64,000 nt of DNA from an uncultured Bacteroidales bacterium (GTDB lineage: Bacteria; Bacteroidota; Bacteroidia; Bacteroidales; UBA932), in contig CAMKRY010000001.1 of the NCBI GenBank assembly GCA_946415345.1, positions 2,115 through 66,114 of the forward strand, read 5' to 3'. The notes below the pieces were generated by a model. The model was not told the origin of the DNA and searched no databases. It saw only the letters and a program-made list of their open reading frames with translations. Numbering within the stretch: the stretch's first letter is position 1; every line of letters begins with the position of its first letter. Below, piece by piece: positions 37,864-47,776 of the stretch. The position numbers were made by a program, and so were the translations under genes.

Positions 37864-38936
37864 TGCCGATGAAAAAGTTTTTCAAGGATATTTTCTGGTG
37901 GATTCGCAAACAGATGAGGCGGGCGAAAGTTCTCGTCGGCTATGTCGTCCGTTTCTTGACGCATGACCTCTGGAATATCGATGAGAACCTGCTCAACATC
38001 TCCAAGTGGAAGACCCGCCTGATCACGGACCTCAAGGTCATCATGGTCCTCGTCCTGTCCTTCTCGAAGCGGCGGATTGCTTTTCAGGCGACGGCCCTGG
38101 CGTTCCGGACCATCCTTGCGATGGTGCCGCTGATTGCCGTCCTGCTCTTCGGCCTGTCACAGATGGGGTTTGAAGGCTATCTGGAGAATTTTATCCTGTC
38201 GCATGTGAAGGAGCAGGGCATCATTGAGATGGTCCTGTCCGCTGCGCGCAATCTCGTTGCGACGTCCACGACCGGCCTCTTCGGCTTCGTTTCCTGCTTC
38301 TCCTTCTTCTGGATTCTGATCTGGATGATGCTCCGCACGGTCGTGGTGTTCGACAACGTCTGGGGCAATATCCGCAAGCGTTCCTTCGGCCGGAACTTCA
38401 TCGCCGTCATCATCCTGCTGGTCCTGATGCCCCTGATGCTGCTGATCTTTGTCGGCGGCTTCCTGATGATGAACCGGGTGGCCGATTTCGTATTCCCGGG
38501 CGATCCCGCCGTCAAATCCTTCCTGAACTGGTTCACGCTCGGTCTCGTCACCGTTCTGGTCCTGTCGCTGATGTATACTTATATTCCTTCCGTCAAGGTC
38601 CGCTACCGCTATGCTCTCCGCTCGGCGGTTTTCGCGGGTACTGCTTTCACGGTGCTGGAATATGTCTACTTCGGTTCCCAGGCCTTCCTGACGGGACAGA
38701 GCGTCGTCTACGGCTATTTTGCCGCCCTGCCTCTCTTCATGATCTGGCTCAACATGGGCTGGACCATTATCCTCTTCGGCGCCGAGCTGACCTACGCCAT
38801 CCAGGCGGTCCGCCGTCGCGACATCACCGTCCGCGAACTGGACGAATTCCAGGCCCGCAGCCGCCGTGCGGGTCAGGAAGATTCCTACGATCATGTTTCC
38901 GACATCATGCGCGATGTCAAGTCGAACCGCAAATGA
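37863..38936 (+). CDS. YihY/BrkB family membrane protein
   Basis: ATALAF..LAMVP, VYGYFAALPLFMIWL..ILFGAE; multiple TM helices. Confidence 0.85.
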
Positions 38937-38948
38937 CAATCCTCCCCC

Positions 38949-41171
38949 ATGGCTTATTCCGAGTTTACTGAAAAAGATTATGAGCTGATTGCCGCCGAGT
39001 ATGCGATCCTCAAGGAGGAAGCCCGGGGGCGCTGCGCCGACGAGGAGGAACTCGCTATCGTCCAGCGAGCCTTCGATTTCGCCAACGACGCCCACAAGAA
39101 TATCCGCCGCCGCAGCGGGGAGCCTTACATGCTGCACCCGATCGCCGTCGCCCGCATCGTCGTCGAGGACATAGGCCTGGGTTGCAAGTCCATTACAGCC
39201 GCCTTGCTCCACGATGTCGTCGAGGACACGGACTACACGGTGGACGACATCCGGAACCTCTTCGGGGACAAAGTCGCGACCCTCGTCGACGGTCTGACCA
39301 AGATCAAAAACGTTCTCGACACCGGTGACAAGACCATTTCCGACCCCCTCGCCCAGCAGAGCCTTCAGGCCGAGAACTTCAAGCGTATCCTCCTGACCCT
39401 GAACGATGACGTGCGCGTCGTGCTCATCAAACTGGCGGACCGCCTCCACAACTGCCGGACGATCCAGCACATGCCTGAGCACAAGCGGGACAAGATCCTG
39501 AGCGAGACCATGTTCGTCTTTATCCCCCTGGCGCACCAGCTGGGTCTCTACTCCATCAAATCCGAGCTGGAGAACATCTGGCTGCAGTATAAGGAACCGG
39601 CCGCTTACAAGGAAATCAGCGCCAAGATCGGCGCCTTCGTCCGGGAGCGCGGCAAGGACATGGAGGCTTTCCTCGCACCGGTGGACGCCGCGTTGCAGAA
39701 GGCGGGATTCCATTATGAGATCAAACGGCGCGTCAAGACCCCTTACTCGGTCTGGCGCAAGATGCGGGACAAGCAGATCTCTTTTGACCAGGTCTATGAC
39801 CTCTACGCCATCCGCATCATCTTTGACGCGGACCAGAAGTTCGGCAACACGGAGCGCGACCAGTGCTGGCGCGTTTTTTCCATCATTACCGACATCTACC
39901 GCTACAATCCCGAGCGTCTGCGCGACTGGGTCAGCAATACCAAGGCCAACGGCTACGAGGCCCTGCACTGCACGCTCATCGGCCCCGGCGGCGTCTGGTT
40001 CGAGGTCCAGATCCGCACCCGCCGCATGGACGACATTGCCGAGAAAGGCATTGCCGCCCACTGGGCCTACAAGAAGGACGGCTACATCGGCGAGGAGAAC
40101 AGCGAGATCGAGTCCTGGCTTTCCCGGGTCAAGGATATCCTCCAGAATCCCGACGTCAGCTCGCTGGAACTGCTGGACATCATTCACAACGACCTCACCA
40201 GTTCCGATATCTTTGTCTTCACCCCCAAAGGCGAGCAGCGGACCATCCCCAAAGGTTCTACGGTTCTCGACTTCGCCTATATGATCCATACCGAGATCGG
40301 CAACCGGGCCATCGCCGCCAAGGTCAACATGCGTCTCGTACCGCTGAGCCGGGTGCTCCGCAGCGGCGACCAGATCGAGATCATTACGGCCGAAGAAGGC
40401 ACTCCGAAGAAAGAATGGCTCCAGTTCCTCCAGACGCGCCGCGCCCGCAATGTCGTCATGGACTATTTCCGCGACGAGCGCAAACAGAGCATCGAACAGG
40501 GGCGCAAAATGCTGACCGAGCAGCTCCAGGCCCTCGGCTATGACGAGCTGGACGACGAGACCAAGCGCCGCCTTCTCTTCCACTACCAGCTGGGATCGAT
40601 GGACGATCTGTATCTCCGCGTCGGACTCGGTATCGTCAAGATCGGTGATCTGCATGAGTATTTCGCCAAAAAGACGGGTCGCGCCGGTTCCCGCTTCTGG
40701 ATGCTCCCTTGGTGGCGCCAGAAAAAGAACGATGGCCCGGTACCCGTTCAGGGCGGCTATGCCATCGCCACCTGTTGCAACCCCGTCCCCGGTGACTCCG
40801 TCATCGGCATCAAATCCCCCGACGGGACCATCACCGTCCACAAGAAATCCTGTCCTGTCGCGGACAGCGTCGGTACGAAGCATGGCGACTGGATTGTGGT
40901 CCCGAAATGGGGTATGGACCCGTCCGCCGAGCAGTTCGCCGTCCAGATCCAACTCAAGGGCATCGACCGCATCGGCCTCGTCAACGACCTGACCAAGACG
41001 GTTTCCCTCCTGCTGAATGCCAATATGCGCAAGATATACCTCGCTTCCGAAGAGGGCCTCTTCGAGGGTTACATCGAGGTGTTCGTCAGCAGCCGAAAGG
41101 ATCTGGACACCATCGTGTCCAAGCTCCAGAAAATTGACGGCATCGAGTCCGTCGTACGTAAAGAATTATAA
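38949..41171 (+). CDS. relA: RelA/SpoT (p)ppGpp synthetase/hydrolase
   Basis: RRSGEPY, LHDVVED, IKLADRLHN, EVQIRT, AAHWAYK, TGS, CC and ACT domains. Confidence 0.93.
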   Translation: MAYSEFTEKDYELIAAEYAILKEEARGRCADEEELAIVQRAFDFANDAHKNIRRRSGEPYMLHPIAVARIVVEDIGLGCKSITAALLHDVVEDTDYTVDDIRNLFGDKVATLVDGLTKIKNVLDTGDKTISDPLAQQSLQAENFKRILLTLNDDVRVVLIKLADRLHNCRTIQHMPEHKRDKILSETMFVFIPLAHQLGLYSIKSELENIWLQYKEPAAYKEISAKIGAFVRERGKDMEAFLAPVDAALQKAGFHYEIKRRVKTPYSVWRKMRDKQISFDQVYDLYAIRIIFDADQKFGNTERDQCWRVFSIITDIYRYNPERLRDWVSNTKANGYEALHCTLIGPGGVWFEVQIRTRRMDDIAEKGIAAHWAYKKDGYIGEENSEIESWLSRVKDILQNPDVSSLELLDIIHNDLTSSDIFVFTPKGEQRTIPKGSTVLDFAYMIHTEIGNRAIAAKVNMRLVPLSRVLRSGDQIEIITAEEGTPKKEWLQFLQTRRARNVVMDYFRDERKQSIEQGRKMLTEQLQALGYDELDDETKRRLLFHYQLGSMDDLYLRVGLGIVKIGDLHEYFAKKTGRAGSRFWMLPWWRQKKNDGPVPVQGGYAIATCCNPVPGDSVIGIKSPDGTITVHKKSCPVADSVGTKHGDWIVVPKWGMDPSAEQFAVQIQLKGIDRIGLVNDLTKTVSLLLNANMRKIYLASEEGLFEGYIEVFVSSRKDLDTIVSKLQKIDGIESVVRKEL

Positions 41172-41177
41172 TACAGC

Positions 41178-42989
41178 ATGTTCCGTCATACCAAGTTCCA
41201 TCTCCCCTTCTGGTCCCCGCTCATTCCGGTCGCGGCGGTCCTGGGTTACGCGATGCTGGCCCATGGCTGCGCCAACACGACGACCCCGCCGACGGGCGGC
41301 CCGAAGGATACGATTCCCCCGGTTCTCCGCAAGGTGGCTCCCCTTCCCGGTACGGTCGGCGTTCCGACCCATAAACCCCGGCTGGAATTCACCTTCGACG
41401 AGTATGTCAAGATCAAGGATCCCAAGGCCATTTTCCTGTCTCCGCCGCTGGAGAAGTCCCCGCGCTTCAAGATGCGCGGCAAGACGCTCGTCATCTATTT
41501 CGAAAGCGACCTTGACAGCCTGACGACCTATTCGCTGGACCTTACCGGTGCCGTTACGGACAACAATGAAGGCAACCCCTTCCCCGGTTACACGCTCGTA
41601 TTCTCCACAGGCGACCAGATCGATTCCATGATGGTGACGGGCATCATCCAGGATTGCCAGACGCTGAAACCGGTCAAGGGCGCTACGGTCATGTTCTACA
41701 AGGACCAGGCGGACTCCGCCCTTTTCCTCCACCGGCCGAATGCCGCCGCCAAGACGGACGACTGGGGCTTCTTCAGCGTCCGAAACATCCAGGACACCGT
41801 TTATCGTGTGTACGCCATTCTGGACGCCAACTCCAACAATCTCTACGAGATGGACAGCGAACGTATCGCCTTCCTCGATACGCTCTTCCGGCCGACCTCT
41901 GTCGTCCGTGACAGTCTGCCGGAGCTGATGAAATACGACATGAAGGACACGGCCGCCTGTCTGGCCCGCCGGACCGAACTGGAAATGAACATGTTCCGCG
42001 AAAAGCCCTCCAAGCAGCTGATCGTCAAGAAGGAACGAGTCGGCTGGCGCACGGCCTATATCACGTTCATGGCTCCGAACGCGGAGGTGGATTCCATCTG
42101 GATCCGCGGCATCAAGCCCGACCGCCTCATCACCCAGTTCAACCCCCAGCGCGACTCCCTCGAGATCTGGGTCAACGACCCGCGCCGCATGCCGGATACG
42201 CTCAAGATGTTCGTCAAGTACAAGAAGACGGACACGCTCGGTGTCCTCCAGCCGACGGTCGAGGAGGTCAAACTCGTCATCGACAAAAAGCTGAAGGCAG
42301 AGGCGAAGACCCCGCGCCGCAATCTCAAGCATGAGGATACGCTCTGCGTACTCAAGCCCGAGGTCTCCCCCGAAACGGTCGAGCAGTACGGTTTTACGGT
42401 CGAATTCCAGTATCCGCTGGTGGCTGACGGATTCGACTCGCTCATTTTCCGCAGCGTCAACCCGCGCCAGAAGGAAAGCATCGGCCGTTACCGGGTAACG
42501 CGCGATTCGTTGAACCTCCGACGTTATACCATCATGCCGGAGGAGAAACTCCAGGAAGGCTATGAGTATTTCCTTAAGTTCCCGCATCGTAAGTTCCAGG
42601 ATATCAACGGCTTCTGGAATGACAGCACGGAAGTCAAGGTCTCTCTCCCCAAGGATGAGACGCTCAGCACCCTGATTCTCAAGGTCAGCGGCGCGAACGG
42701 CCATCGCTACATCGTGGACCTGCTGAATGAAAAGCGCGACAAGGTCCTCCGCTCCTTCCAGGTCCGCAGCGACCAGACCCTCACCTTCCCCTATGTCAAG
42801 GCCGGAAAGTACTCCATCCGCGTAACGGAGGACCTCAACGGCAACGGACTCGTGGATACCGGCAACCTGCTGGAGCGCAGGCAGCCCGAGAAGGTGCGCT
42901 TCTTCAAGATTGACGATGCGTCCGTCATTGACATTCCGCAGCGGACCGAGTGGGAGCAGGATCTGGATCTCGTGGAACTCTTTAAATAG
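41178..42989 (+). CDS. Ig-like (Big_5) domain lipoprotein
   Basis: GCAN..PPTGGPKDTIPP, FDEYV, C-terminal DLNGNGLVDTG..RQPE. Confidence 0.8.
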   Translation: MFRHTKFHLPFWSPLIPVAAVLGYAMLAHGCANTTTPPTGGPKDTIPPVLRKVAPLPGTVGVPTHKPRLEFTFDEYVKIKDPKAIFLSPPLEKSPRFKMRGKTLVIYFESDLDSLTTYSLDLTGAVTDNNEGNPFPGYTLVFSTGDQIDSMMVTGIIQDCQTLKPVKGATVMFYKDQADSALFLHRPNAAAKTDDWGFFSVRNIQDTVYRVYAILDANSNNLYEMDSERIAFLDTLFRPTSVVRDSLPELMKYDMKDTAACLARRTELEMNMFREKPSKQLIVKKERVGWRTAYITFMAPNAEVDSIWIRGIKPDRLITQFNPQRDSLEIWVNDPRRMPDTLKMFVKYKKTDTLGVLQPTVEEVKLVIDKKLKAEAKTPRRNLKHEDTLCVLKPEVSPETVEQYGFTVEFQYPLVADGFDSLIFRSVNPRQKESIGRYRVTRDSLNLRRYTIMPEEKLQEGYEYFLKFPHRKFQDINGFWNDSTEVKVSLPKDETLSTLILKVSGANGHRYIVDLLNEKRDKVLRSFQVRSDQTLTFPYVKAGKYSIRVTEDLNGNGLVDTGNLLERRQPEKVRFFKIDDASVIDIPQRTEWEQDLDLVELFK

Positions 42990-42998
42990 GAGGATGCC

Positions 42999-43910
42999 AT
43001 GAAACGATACTTTCTTCTTCCCCTCCTCTTCTGTCTGGCTCTTCCGGCCCGTGCCCAGTCTGACAGTCCGGCTCTTCCGGCCCGTGCCCAGTCTGACAGT
43101 CCGGCTCTTCCGGCAGGCCTGCAGATCGATACGGTCCAGGTCGTCAAGCGCGACTTTGTCGTCAACGACTATTCCACCATCGGCGCCGAGGGCGGTCTCG
43201 TGCTCAGCAACATCCTTTTCAATCCGCCGAAGGATACGAAGTTCTTCCTGAACGGTCCTGCGTTCAACCTCCTGTTCACGCACTACTCCAAGCTCTTCGG
43301 ATATATGCCGTATTTCGGTTTCCAGATCGGGTTTGCGTATACCAACGGCGGCTACTGGTTCAAGACCGACAAGGAAACGAAGGTCACGCCTTCCCTGGAC
43401 GGATACCGCGGAGCGACCTGGAAAGTGGCCGAAATGCCCTTCCTGATGATGTTCCGCGTGGATGCACCGCATTTCCGCGTGATGGCCAAAGCCGGTATCT
43501 ACGCCGGCTATCGCTGGGATATTCACCGGACCGTTCATGAGAACTATGCCGATTACGAGGGGGTGGTCATCACCGGCTTCAATGTCCATGACTATACGGA
43601 CAAGTGGCGCGACATCGACAACCGCTACGACTATGGTCTCGAGGGCGGCCTCGGCGTCGCCTTCGTCTTTGATCCCTTCGAGTTCCACGTCAACGCCCTG
43701 CTCAAATACGGCTGGTCTTCGCTCTATCAGCCGGATTACGCGAGTCCATATTATTACCGTTTCGCCTATCCGTTCGACGTGATGATTACGGCCGGCATCC
43801 ACTTCCAACTGAGCCGCCGCACCGGCAAGAGCAAGGCCCAGCTGCGCCGCGAGGCCTATGACGCCGTGTATAACCCTTCCGTGAATGAGGAAATAGTACC
43901 CGTCCAGTAA
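42999..43910 (+). CDS. outer-membrane beta-barrel protein
   Basis: Signal peptide, amphipathic strands, DYGLEGGLG. Confidence 0.75.
   Translation: MKRYFLLPLLFCLALPARAQSDSPALPARAQSDSPALPAGLQIDTVQVVKRDFVVNDYSTIGAEGGLVLSNILFNPPKDTKFFLNGPAFNLLFTHYSKLFGYMPYFGFQIGFAYTNGGYWFKTDKETKVTPSLDGYRGATWKVAEMPFLMMFRVDAPHFRVMAKAGIYAGYRWDIHRTVHENYADYEGVVITGFNVHDYTDKWRDIDNRYDYGLEGGLGVAFVFDPFEFHVNALLKYGWSSLYQPDYASPYYYRFAYPFDVMITAGIHFQLSRRTGKSKAQLRREAYDAVYNPSVNEEIVPVQ
43037..43114 (+). repeat. perfect 33-bp tandem duplication (about 2.4 copies)
   Basis: GGCTCTTCCGGCCCGTGCCCAGTCTGACAGTCC x2 plus GGCTCTTCCGGC. Confidence 0.95.
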
Positions 43911-47025: not shown

Positions 47026-47595
47026 ATGAAAAAATTCTTTATGATGCTCGCCGTTGCGGCGATGATGGTATTTGCCGTTTCCTGCGGCAATGACAAGAAA
47101 AAAGATGCCAAGGGTGAGGCTGCGACTGAGACGGTTGATTACGCCAAGATGGCTCCCGCCGATCTCGCCCAGGCCCTCCTCAAAGCTGCCAAGAGCGACG
47201 ATCTTGCTGCCTTTAAGGCTATTTTCGAGGTGATGGATACTCTCGATGATGAGGATGCCGAAGCGGCTATGGCCGCCCTCTCCGAGTCCGACCAGATGAC
47301 CATTGCTTTCTATGCCATGGCCCACATGGAGGAAATCACCGGTGAGAAGCTCGACTTTGACGATGAGGACTATGCCTTGGAAGAAGGCGATGACTACGAT
47401 CTCGACTATGATGATTCCGACATCCGCGCTCTTTACGATGATGCCAATAATCAGGTCGAGGATGCCTACAAGGACGCCTACAAGCAGGTCGAGGATTCCT
47501 ACGGCGATGCCATGAATGAGATTAAGGACGCCTATGACGATGCACTGAAAGATCTTCAGGATTCTTATGAGGATGCCCTGAACGATCTGTTCTAG
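47026..47595 (+). CDS. acidic lipoprotein with 11-residue repeats
   Basis: Lipobox AVSC; C-terminal DA..Q/E-hydrophobic-.D.Y. repeats. Confidence 0.8.
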   Translation: MKKFFMMLAVAAMMVFAVSCGNDKKKDAKGEAATETVDYAKMAPADLAQALLKAAKSDDLAAFKAIFEVMDTLDDEDAEAAMAALSESDQMTIAFYAMAHMEEITGEKLDFDDEDYALEEGDDYDLDYDDSDIRALYDDANNQVEDAYKDAYKQVEDSYGDAMNEIKDAYDDALKDLQDSYEDALNDLF

Positions 47596-47613
47596 AATCC
47601 CCCGTCATCATGA

Positions 47614-47647
47614 AAAAAGACTCCGCAGCGAACTGCGGAGTCTTTTT
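47614..47647. terminator. bidirectional intrinsic terminator
   Basis: AAAAAGACTCCGCAG-CGAA-CTGCGGAGTCTTTTT. Confidence 0.85.
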
Positions 47648-47650
47648 GTG

Positions 47651-47723
47651 TCTGGATGACTGGACTTGAACCAGCGACCTCCTGGTCCCTAACCAGGTGC
47701 GCTACCAACTGCGCTACATCCAG
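47651..47723 (-). tRNA. tRNA-Pro, anticodon AGG
   Basis: CTGGATG/CATCCAG acceptor (C1:G72, A73), GCGC D-stem, CCTGG-TTAGGGA-CCAGG anticodon arm, GCTGG-TTCAAGT-CCAGT T-arm; CCA not encoded. Confidence 0.93.
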
Positions 47724-47745: not shown

Positions 47746-47776
47746 CAAAGGTAGCAATATTTCTCGAATTGACAAA
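47746..47776 (-). promoter_or_regulatory. promoter of the tRNA gene
   Basis: Minus strand TTTG-19 nt-TACCTTTG, matching the Bacteroidetes consensus. Confidence 0.75.

Follow-up and report, generated by a model that had tools for sequence, protein, structure and literature searches.

Bacterial transfer RNAs (tRNAs) with adenosine at anticodon position 34 (A34) are, according to reviews, almost absent beyond tRNA-Arg(ACG), the exceptions they name being the Leu(AAG) of some Firmicutes and the Thr(AGU) of Leuconostocaceae and Mycoplasma (PMC8007984, PMC6103715, PMC11066159). Leu(AAG) carries inosine at this position (I34) through a TadA of widened range, with reprogramming of leucine codons (PMC11472039, PMC13249217). 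Here we describe a tRNA-Pro(AGG) gene in a 64-kb stretch of contig CAMKRY010000001.1 from an uncultured Bacteroidales bacterium—the whole stretch is called the window below—together with the proline tRNAs, TadA sequences, and codon use of its genus. All genomes compared are metagenome-assembled genomes (MAGs). Bacterial A34 tRNAs that take over from a G34 isoacceptor in boxes other than Arg are already known, and the case is of that kind. New are its occurrence for proline in the Bacteroidota, the variation of the trait among species of a single genus, in which it arose twice, the almost total avoidance of CCC by species without the tRNA, and a covarying TadA residue. A literature search, whose scope did not extend to the Rafels-Ybern surveys of A34 tRNAs in bacteria, turned up no description of a Bacteroidales Pro(AGG).

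Several described systems share features with this locus. The Leu(AAG)/IAG system of Lactobacillales (Streptococcus pyogenes, S. mutans, oral streptococci, Oenococcus oeni) likewise comprises a second A34 tRNA that replaces a G34 isoacceptor, a genome-wide synonymous codon shift, and a single TadA facing an anticodon loop changed at position 35. The present case differs in its proline AGG anticodon with G35 in place of A35, in its phylum, in being polymorphic within a genus, and in having arisen at least twice; and whereas a C-terminal extension has been suggested for the Streptococcus TadA, here the candidate is a point change in the loop of residues 26–28, with I34 predicted from sequence. 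The same anticodon in the same codon box is found in a Salmonella enterica proL mutant (Chen, Qian, Zhang, Isaksson and Bjork 2002) and in an orthogonal tRNA(AGG) in E. coli. These are laboratory constructs that the host TadA is reported to leave untouched, whereas the tRNA described here is natural, has been maintained by selection in many species, and is matched by changes in codon use and TadA. Eukaryotic tRNA-Pro(AGG), edited to IGG by ADAT2/ADAT3, has the same anticodon, the same absence of GGG, and one tRNA for both CCU and CCC (PMC8007984), but its enzyme is a lenient heterodimer that edits seven or eight tRNAs, whereas here there is one TadA of the homodimer type. Mycoplasma capricolum has another A34 tRNA that occurs naturally in a bacterium, falls outside the Arg box, and decodes codons ending in C, namely tRNA-Thr(AGU). 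That tRNA is unmodified and forms part of the minimal tRNA complement of a reduced genome, whereas Pro(AGG) supplements UGG and CGG in a free-living anaerobe of the gut. With these isoacceptors coexisting, the genus does not have a minimal set of one tRNA per box.

The experimentally worked-out bacterial cases have so far been Leu(AAG) of Lactobacillales and the unmodified Thr(AGU) of Mycoplasma; the present one concerns proline and another phylum. It provides a natural contrast, in which CCC use in core genes is more than ten-fold apart between close relatives that have the tRNA and those that lack it; one residue of a TadA loop that protein engineers have mutated for selectivity also distinguishes them. 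The case bears on the questions of how a strict TadA widens its substrate range and whether a new tRNA drives or follows synonymous codon change. It also matters for the annotation and expression of rumen Bacteroidales genes: CCC is near-forbidden in about half of the species and common in the rest.

Proline tRNAs and CCC use across the genus

Codon use was counted in rpoB and the start of rpoC, in a first set of 28 relatives and in a second, separate set of 28 genomes; these counts replaced a rough count over unfiltered open reading frames (ORFs), which was noisy from shadow ORFs. Species without Pro(AGG), which have UGG and CGG, use CCC for 2.0% of their proline codons in the first set and 2.8% in the second. 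The share is 26% and 31%, respectively, in species with the type of Pro(AGG) found in the window (type 1, below), 40% and 43% in those with a second type (type 2), and 37% in GGG species (first set). Expressed as CCC/(CCC+CCU), the ratio was at most 0.09 in 10/10 AGG-less species of the first set; in the second it was at most 0.16 in 14/14 AGG-less species and at least 0.19 in 14/14 AGG species. Both sets together give at most 0.16 in 24/24 AGG-less species and at least 0.19 in 28 of 29 AGG species. The effect is confined to the proline box: C/(C+U) in the seven other four-codon boxes is about the same across all groups, and CCG does not rise alongside CCC.

The difference holds between sister lineages. 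Among eight independent contrasts on the rpoB tree, CCC rises with the tRNA in seven, falls in none, and is tied in one (P = 0.016). The tied contrast is G151, which has the tRNA at a CCC ratio of 0.05; its Pro(AGG) looks like a recent gain because a very close sister, G199, is without the tRNA. The codons concerned encode proline: 380 of the 471 CCC codons in the rpoB genes of AGG species occupy columns at which 90% or more of the AGG-less species have Pro, where the latter write CCU (47%) or CCG (34%), and CCC is therefore read as proline without recoding. Because CCC makes up 2–3% of proline codons without the tRNA and 26–43% with it, the codon record indicates that Pro(AGG) is a working CCC reader that stands in for the lost G34 tRNA. 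The near-absence of CCC in UGG + CGG species implies, in turn, that their U34 tRNA reads CCC poorly.

In the AGG-less species (G011, G042, G046, G104, G170, G181, G184, G185, G199, G210, and 14 more), CCC is shunned and C-ending codons are preferred in other four-codon boxes (rpoB loci L214–L300).

The tRNA repertoire was typed in 201 genomes of the genus with a pattern spanning the D arm and the anticodon arm. The tRNA groups are defined by this sequence pattern, and codon data and one full tRNA set agree with the grouping. At least one proline tRNA was found in 200 of the 201, the usual set being UGG + CGG. Pro(AGG) is present in 87 genomes (about 43% of species; 44 of the 105 high-quality genomes) and never together with GGG. 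The initial annotation had entertained a replacement of Pro(GGG), and the relatives bear this out: Pro(GGG) was detected in 4 of the 201 genomes, in 0/105 of high quality, and not in G136, a 99%-complete genome whose 37 tRNAs (Rfam model, ARAGORN typing) include AGG, CGG, and UGG for proline. As to other ANN tRNAs, only Arg(ACG) accompanies Pro(AGG), both in G136 and in the window's own assembly.

The same gene recurs well beyond the window. A near-identical Pro(AGG) was found in 8 of the 24 same-genus species first searched, and at least 119 public genomes at species level, almost all of them Bacteroidales MAGs, have the 27-nt anticodon arm without a single change. About three-quarters of the carriers' record titles point to a ruminant or rumen source, and three, among the matches listed, are labelled Candidatus Cryptobacteroides. 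Because the identical arm is present in this many other species-level assemblies, A34 is not a sequencing error; the recurrence of Pro(AGG) in the genus likewise rules out a private variant. The alternative that all relatives carry GGG, raised when the gene was first annotated, fell away with the finding that relatives carry AGG.

Pro(AGG) has more than one origin within the genus. Type 1, found in 72 of the 87 AGG genomes, has the anticodon stem CCUGG/CCAGG, the pair U2:A71, and the T-loop UUCAAGU; no clear parent was found for it, its identity to the local CGG, UGG, and GGG tRNAs being alike (78–85%). Type 2, in the other 15, has the body of tRNA-Pro(CGG), with 69 of 74 positions identical to the CGG tRNA of the same genome, and is a separate origin by duplication of tRNA-Pro(CGG) with C34 changed to A. 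Example type 2 loci are G094:C6:24435-24474, G127:C14:32850-32889, and G092:C8:104227-104266, with 12 further genomes. No newly arisen GGG copy was seen in the genus. On a 56-species rpoB tree, the presence of AGG requires at least 13 changes, at least 8 of them forced by well-supported branches; type 1 alone requires at least 11, with at least 7 forced by supported branches. Pro(AGG) has thus been gained or lost many times in the genus.

Outside it, a survey of 301 genomes from about 140 families of the order confirmed two further Pro(AGG) tRNAs, one with another body; a third pattern match is not a tRNA. A pattern for Pro(AGG) with a canonical T-loop matched at least 120 further species-level genomes, and ARAGORN confirmed 112 of 119 fetched loci. 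These lineages are mainly Lachnospiraceae and other Bacillota, together with Succinivibrionaceae, Flavobacteriales, Cytophagales, Verrucomicrobiota, and candidate phyla. They share the anticodon but have canonical CGGGG-type acceptor stems and GGUUCRAAUCC T-loops, and because the tRNA bodies differ they represent separate origins. Pro(AGG) had been called rare in bacteria: uncommon it is, yet several phyla together supply well over a hundred species that carry it. Cultured carriers include Succinatimonas hippei YIT 12066, Diplocloster agilis ASD5720, and Lientehia hominis NSJ-141 (loci L301–L419, including L345, L369, and L380).

A covarying residue in TadA and the reading of position 34

Where A34 is read as inosine, TadA is the enzyme expected to act on it. 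A single tadA was found in 59 of the 60 relatives searched. The initial annotation had called for an inspection of tadA paralogues; no AGG-specific paralogue was found, the second matches being other deaminases in both groups. One TadA residue covaries with the tRNA. No residue split the AGG and AGG-less groups cleanly in the first 29 TadA sequences. The column that stood out is the residue directly before the conserved E-[VI]-P-[VI]-G-A motif, which is Gly in 11 of the 16 AGG species and Asp in all 10 that are AGG-less. This difference was treated as a hypothesis from the first set and then tested on 30 new genomes, where 14 of the 16 AGG species had Gly and none of the 14 AGG-less species did. 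In total, the 32 AGG species have Gly (25), Asp (3), Glu (3), or Asn (1), and the 24 AGG-less species Asp (22), Glu (1), or Asn (1) and no Gly, a difference with a Fisher P of about 1e-9, uncorrected for kinship. All four Gly codons are used at this column, so Gly has been maintained by selection and does not mark one recent allele. The TadAs of the sister species G151 and G199, with Gly and Asp here, respectively, hardly differ elsewhere. Two more columns, aligned to E. coli V30 and K110, lean the same way.

The position of this residue suggests a route to altered substrate choice. The column aligns to R26 of E. coli TadA, to Gly25 of S. aureus TadA, and to an Ala in S. pyogenes TadA. Residues 26–28 make up a loop that lies next to the active site and contacts the backbone of the substrate, and they were the main hot spot, R26G included, when TadA was evolved in the laboratory to new selectivity (PMC10188366). 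The candidate substrate is close to the usual one: apart from positions 32 and 35, the Pro(AGG) loop, UUAGGGA, matches the Arg(ACG) loop of the window's own assembly, CUACGGA. In a structure of S. aureus TadA with RNA, C35 is reported to be solvent-exposed and to make one hydrogen bond; the authors of the S. pyogenes work point to position 35 as open to co-evolution of TadA and tRNA, and the S. pyogenes enzyme has broadened its range to take in Leu(AAG), with its differences at 35 and 37 (PMC11472039). The covariation thus favors a widened TadA without proving the widening.

The tRNA and the enzyme are not neighbors. In G136 (locus G136:C1:81308-81837), the gene that follows tadA within about 20 nt is a tRNA-Gln(UUG), and Pro(AGG), which adjoins tRNA-Glu(CUC), lies about 50 kb away, so that tadA and Pro(AGG) are unlinked. 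G154, a GGG carrier with a Gly-type TadA, sits on a long rpoB branch (0.26–0.30) and shows 4% contamination (loci L184, L240); it may once have had AGG, or may be a mixed bin.

The widened TadA and the unmodified-A34 wobble named in the initial annotation are the two mechanisms that remain. Under the former, to which we assign a probability of roughly 0.55, A34 would be deaminated to inosine by a retuned TadA. Pro(AGG) would be the reader of pyrimidine-ending proline codons, above all CCC, in a genus that lost tRNA-Pro(GGG); the single housekeeping TadA would convert A34 to I34, giving IGG, with Asp to Gly at the R26-equivalent position retuning its substrate loop to accept UUAGGGA despite the differences from tRNA-Arg(ACG) at 32 and 35. 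I34 would then pair with C and U, and weakly with A, and UGG and CGG would cover CCA and CCG. The rule and the exceptions to it would alike be accommodated if events began with gain of a tRNA that works at once unmodified, followed by the TadA change and then by codon drift. The broader proposal, that TadA has been retuned repeatedly in this one rumen genus through Asp to Gly in the 26–28 loop, yielding a natural bacterial tRNA-Pro(IGG), we regard as an even bet. If it is true, the living species of the genus would form a series showing the first step in the eukaryotic expansion of inosine decoding, because tRNA, TadA allele, and CCC use switch together between sisters and AGG arose at least twice; the order of tRNA gain, TadA change, and codon drift could then be read from the genus itself.

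Several observations weigh against deamination, most of them on the side of a tRNA with the same role in reading CCU and CCC but with A34 left unmodified. In that alternative, which we consider quite possible although short of even odds, CCC would be read, by analogy with the Salmonella mutant, through a protonated A+:C wobble supported by the two strong G:C pairs of the proline codon, and the TadA Asp/Gly difference would be unrelated or would serve to keep TadA off a look-alike loop. The Salmonella proL G34A tRNA-Pro is reported not to be deaminated and to read CCC almost like the wild-type GGG tRNA (PMC3711424, PMC6103715), and an orthogonal tRNA(AGG) in E. coli, without inosine, reads CCU at 12.9% and CCC at 10.3% (PMC11066159). 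Inosine is consequently unneeded for the codon shift, since unmodified Pro(AGG) already reads CCC well; Mycoplasma tRNA-Thr(AGU) supplies a natural precedent. Within the genus, the AGG species G146 and G094 have an Asp-type TadA, yet their CCC ratios are 0.48 and 0.58, and one GGG species has a Gly-type TadA. TadAs from bacteria without Pro(AGG), that of S. aureus among them, commonly have Gly or Ala at the R26 position. For the TadA residue, the contrasts on the rpoB tree are borderline: about five independent contrasts run the same way, none the opposite way, and three are tied (P about 0.06). The window's own assembly gave no match for tadA, which at 56% completeness fits incompleteness. 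Finally, assembled contigs from four rumen metatranscriptomes have A at position 34, and three RNA-library contigs span the whole tRNA with A34 and no differences. These are weak indications: the contigs run into the flanks, may derive from precursor RNA or DNA, and are for that reason silent on editing of the mature tRNA and on its expression. What unmodified A34 leaves unexplained is the repeated change of TadA from Asp to Gly, seen in two sets and written with four Gly codons; and the other extra bacterial A34 tRNAs tested so far (Leu(AAG) in Oenococcus and Streptococcus), save Mycoplasma Thr(AGU), are I34.

Readings in which the tRNA contributes little to proline decoding fare worse. A transferred or decaying extra copy, with patchiness from horizontal spread or MAG contamination and codons simply following GC content, would account for the scatter of type 1 on the rpoB tree, for flanks that differ between species, and for G151, and it draws on the MAG origin of all genomes and on AGG loci that were slightly GC-richer in a rough count. 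We nevertheless consider it improbable: compensatory changes keep the cloverleaf, each copy has its own promoter motif and terminator, the window copy has a housekeeping context with no mobile-element genes, and the codon effect is specific to the Pro box, holds in sister contrasts, and involves no rise of CCG with CCC. Charging with an amino acid other than proline, or recoding of CCU/CCC, is more improbable still. The acceptor pair U2:A71, in place of the clade's G2:C71, could be read in its favor, but the ProRS identity set is intact and the great majority of CCC codons in rpoB fall at conserved proline columns. The preferred reading, deamination by a retuned TadA, thus competes chiefly with decoding by unmodified A34.

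The tRNA gene and its genomic context

The only tRNA that ARAGORN calls in the window is a minus-strand tRNA-Pro(agg) at 47650-47723, and Rfam RF00005 matches the gene at full length as a clean cloverleaf, with 68.8 bits against a gathering score of 29 (E = 6e-15). The coordinates of the gene and its control elements are collected in Table 1.

Table 1. Positions, within the window, of the tRNA-Pro(AGG) gene and associated elements
Feature	Position	Strand	Remarks
tRNA-Pro(AGG) gene	47651..47723	−	73 nt, CCA not encoded; ARAGORN, Rfam RF00005
Anticodon A34 (47690), G35 (47689), G36 (47688)	47688..47690	−	plus strand CCT; sequence reading, ARAGORN
Bacteroidetes-type −7 element TAccTTTG (consensus TAnnTTTG)	47746..47753	−	about 23 nt upstream of mature 5′ end
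Candidate −33 element TTTG	47773..47776	−	19 nt upstream of −7 element; inferred from sequence reading
Intrinsic terminator hairpin	47613..47647	−	15-bp stem including A-tract/T-tract, loop UUCG, T-run

The acceptor stem reads CUGGAUG/CAUCCAG, with C1:G72 and the discriminator A73, and the anticodon loop is U32 U33 A34 G35 G36 G37 A38, where A34 corresponds to T47690 of the plus strand. Rules for ProRS identity come from work in E. coli; by these rules the set is complete (G35, G36, A73, and C1:G72, plus G37). The initial annotation had given the anticodon as AGG within a TT-AGG-GA loop, an intact cloverleaf, and proline identity elements at these same positions, and each of these statements is confirmed.

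Relatives support the fold independently. Against the G2:C71 usual for the clade, tRNAs of the window type have U2:A71 in the acceptor stem; in orthologues, A5:U68 of the same stem is replaced in a compensatory manner by G5:C68, and the T stems vary as pairs (GCUGG/CCAGU, GAAGG/CCUUU, GCUCG/CGAGU, GCUUG/CAAGU). These paired changes show that the Pro(AGG) gene is held under structural constraint. Folded by itself for minimum free energy, the tRNA forms no cloverleaf and the 3′ strand of its anticodon stem pairs with the T arm, because the CCUGG/CCAGG and GCUGG/CCAGU stems are near-repeats; the cloverleaf is upheld on the strength of the covariance-model alignment and the compensatory changes.

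The gene appears to be an autonomous transcription unit. Of nine relatives, whose flanks are otherwise unrelated, eight have TAnnTTTG, the established consensus of Bacteroides promoters, upstream of the orthologous tRNA, and a scan for sigma-70 promoters upstream of the tRNA returned no site. The terminator hairpin folds with a ΔG of −23.7 kcal/mol (z-score −6.56), and none of 200 shuffles was as good. A simple terminator scan did not call it, probably because the T-run pairs into the stem; folding confirms the hairpin, and since a convergent plus-strand ORF ends at 47595, it can serve both strands. The consensus promoter and terminator first assigned to the gene are thus upheld in part: the terminator stands, as does a promoter of its own, which is of Bacteroidetes type and not the sigma-70-style consensus.

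The neighboring genes are housekeeping genes: a mannose-6-phosphate isomerase-like (manA-like) gene, tsaD, an ABC-F ATPase gene, tamB, and dapA. No mobile-element genes were found near the tRNA in the window, and a mobile-element origin of the window copy is not supported, given these neighbors.

The window's assembly comprises 1.34 Mb in 75 contigs (58.7% G+C) and has 22 tRNA genes. At its 56% completeness, Pro(AGG) is the sole proline tRNA and Arg(ACG) the sole other A34 tRNA, and neither tadA nor rpoB gave a match; the absence of GGG and the state of tadA were for this reason judged in relatives. CCC codons had been described as abundant here, and this holds: CCC makes up 28.7% of proline codons and CCU 11.7%, a CCC/(CCC+CCU) of 0.71, similar to the C/(C+U) share of boxes that G34 tRNAs decode.

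Elsewhere in the window, two long minus-strand ORFs without a Pfam match, of 931 and 880 aa (38157-40952 and 41166-43808), overlap long plus-strand ORFs at 38949-41171 and 41178-42989. The ORFs of one strand in the interval 38157-43808 are probably shadows in GC-rich DNA.

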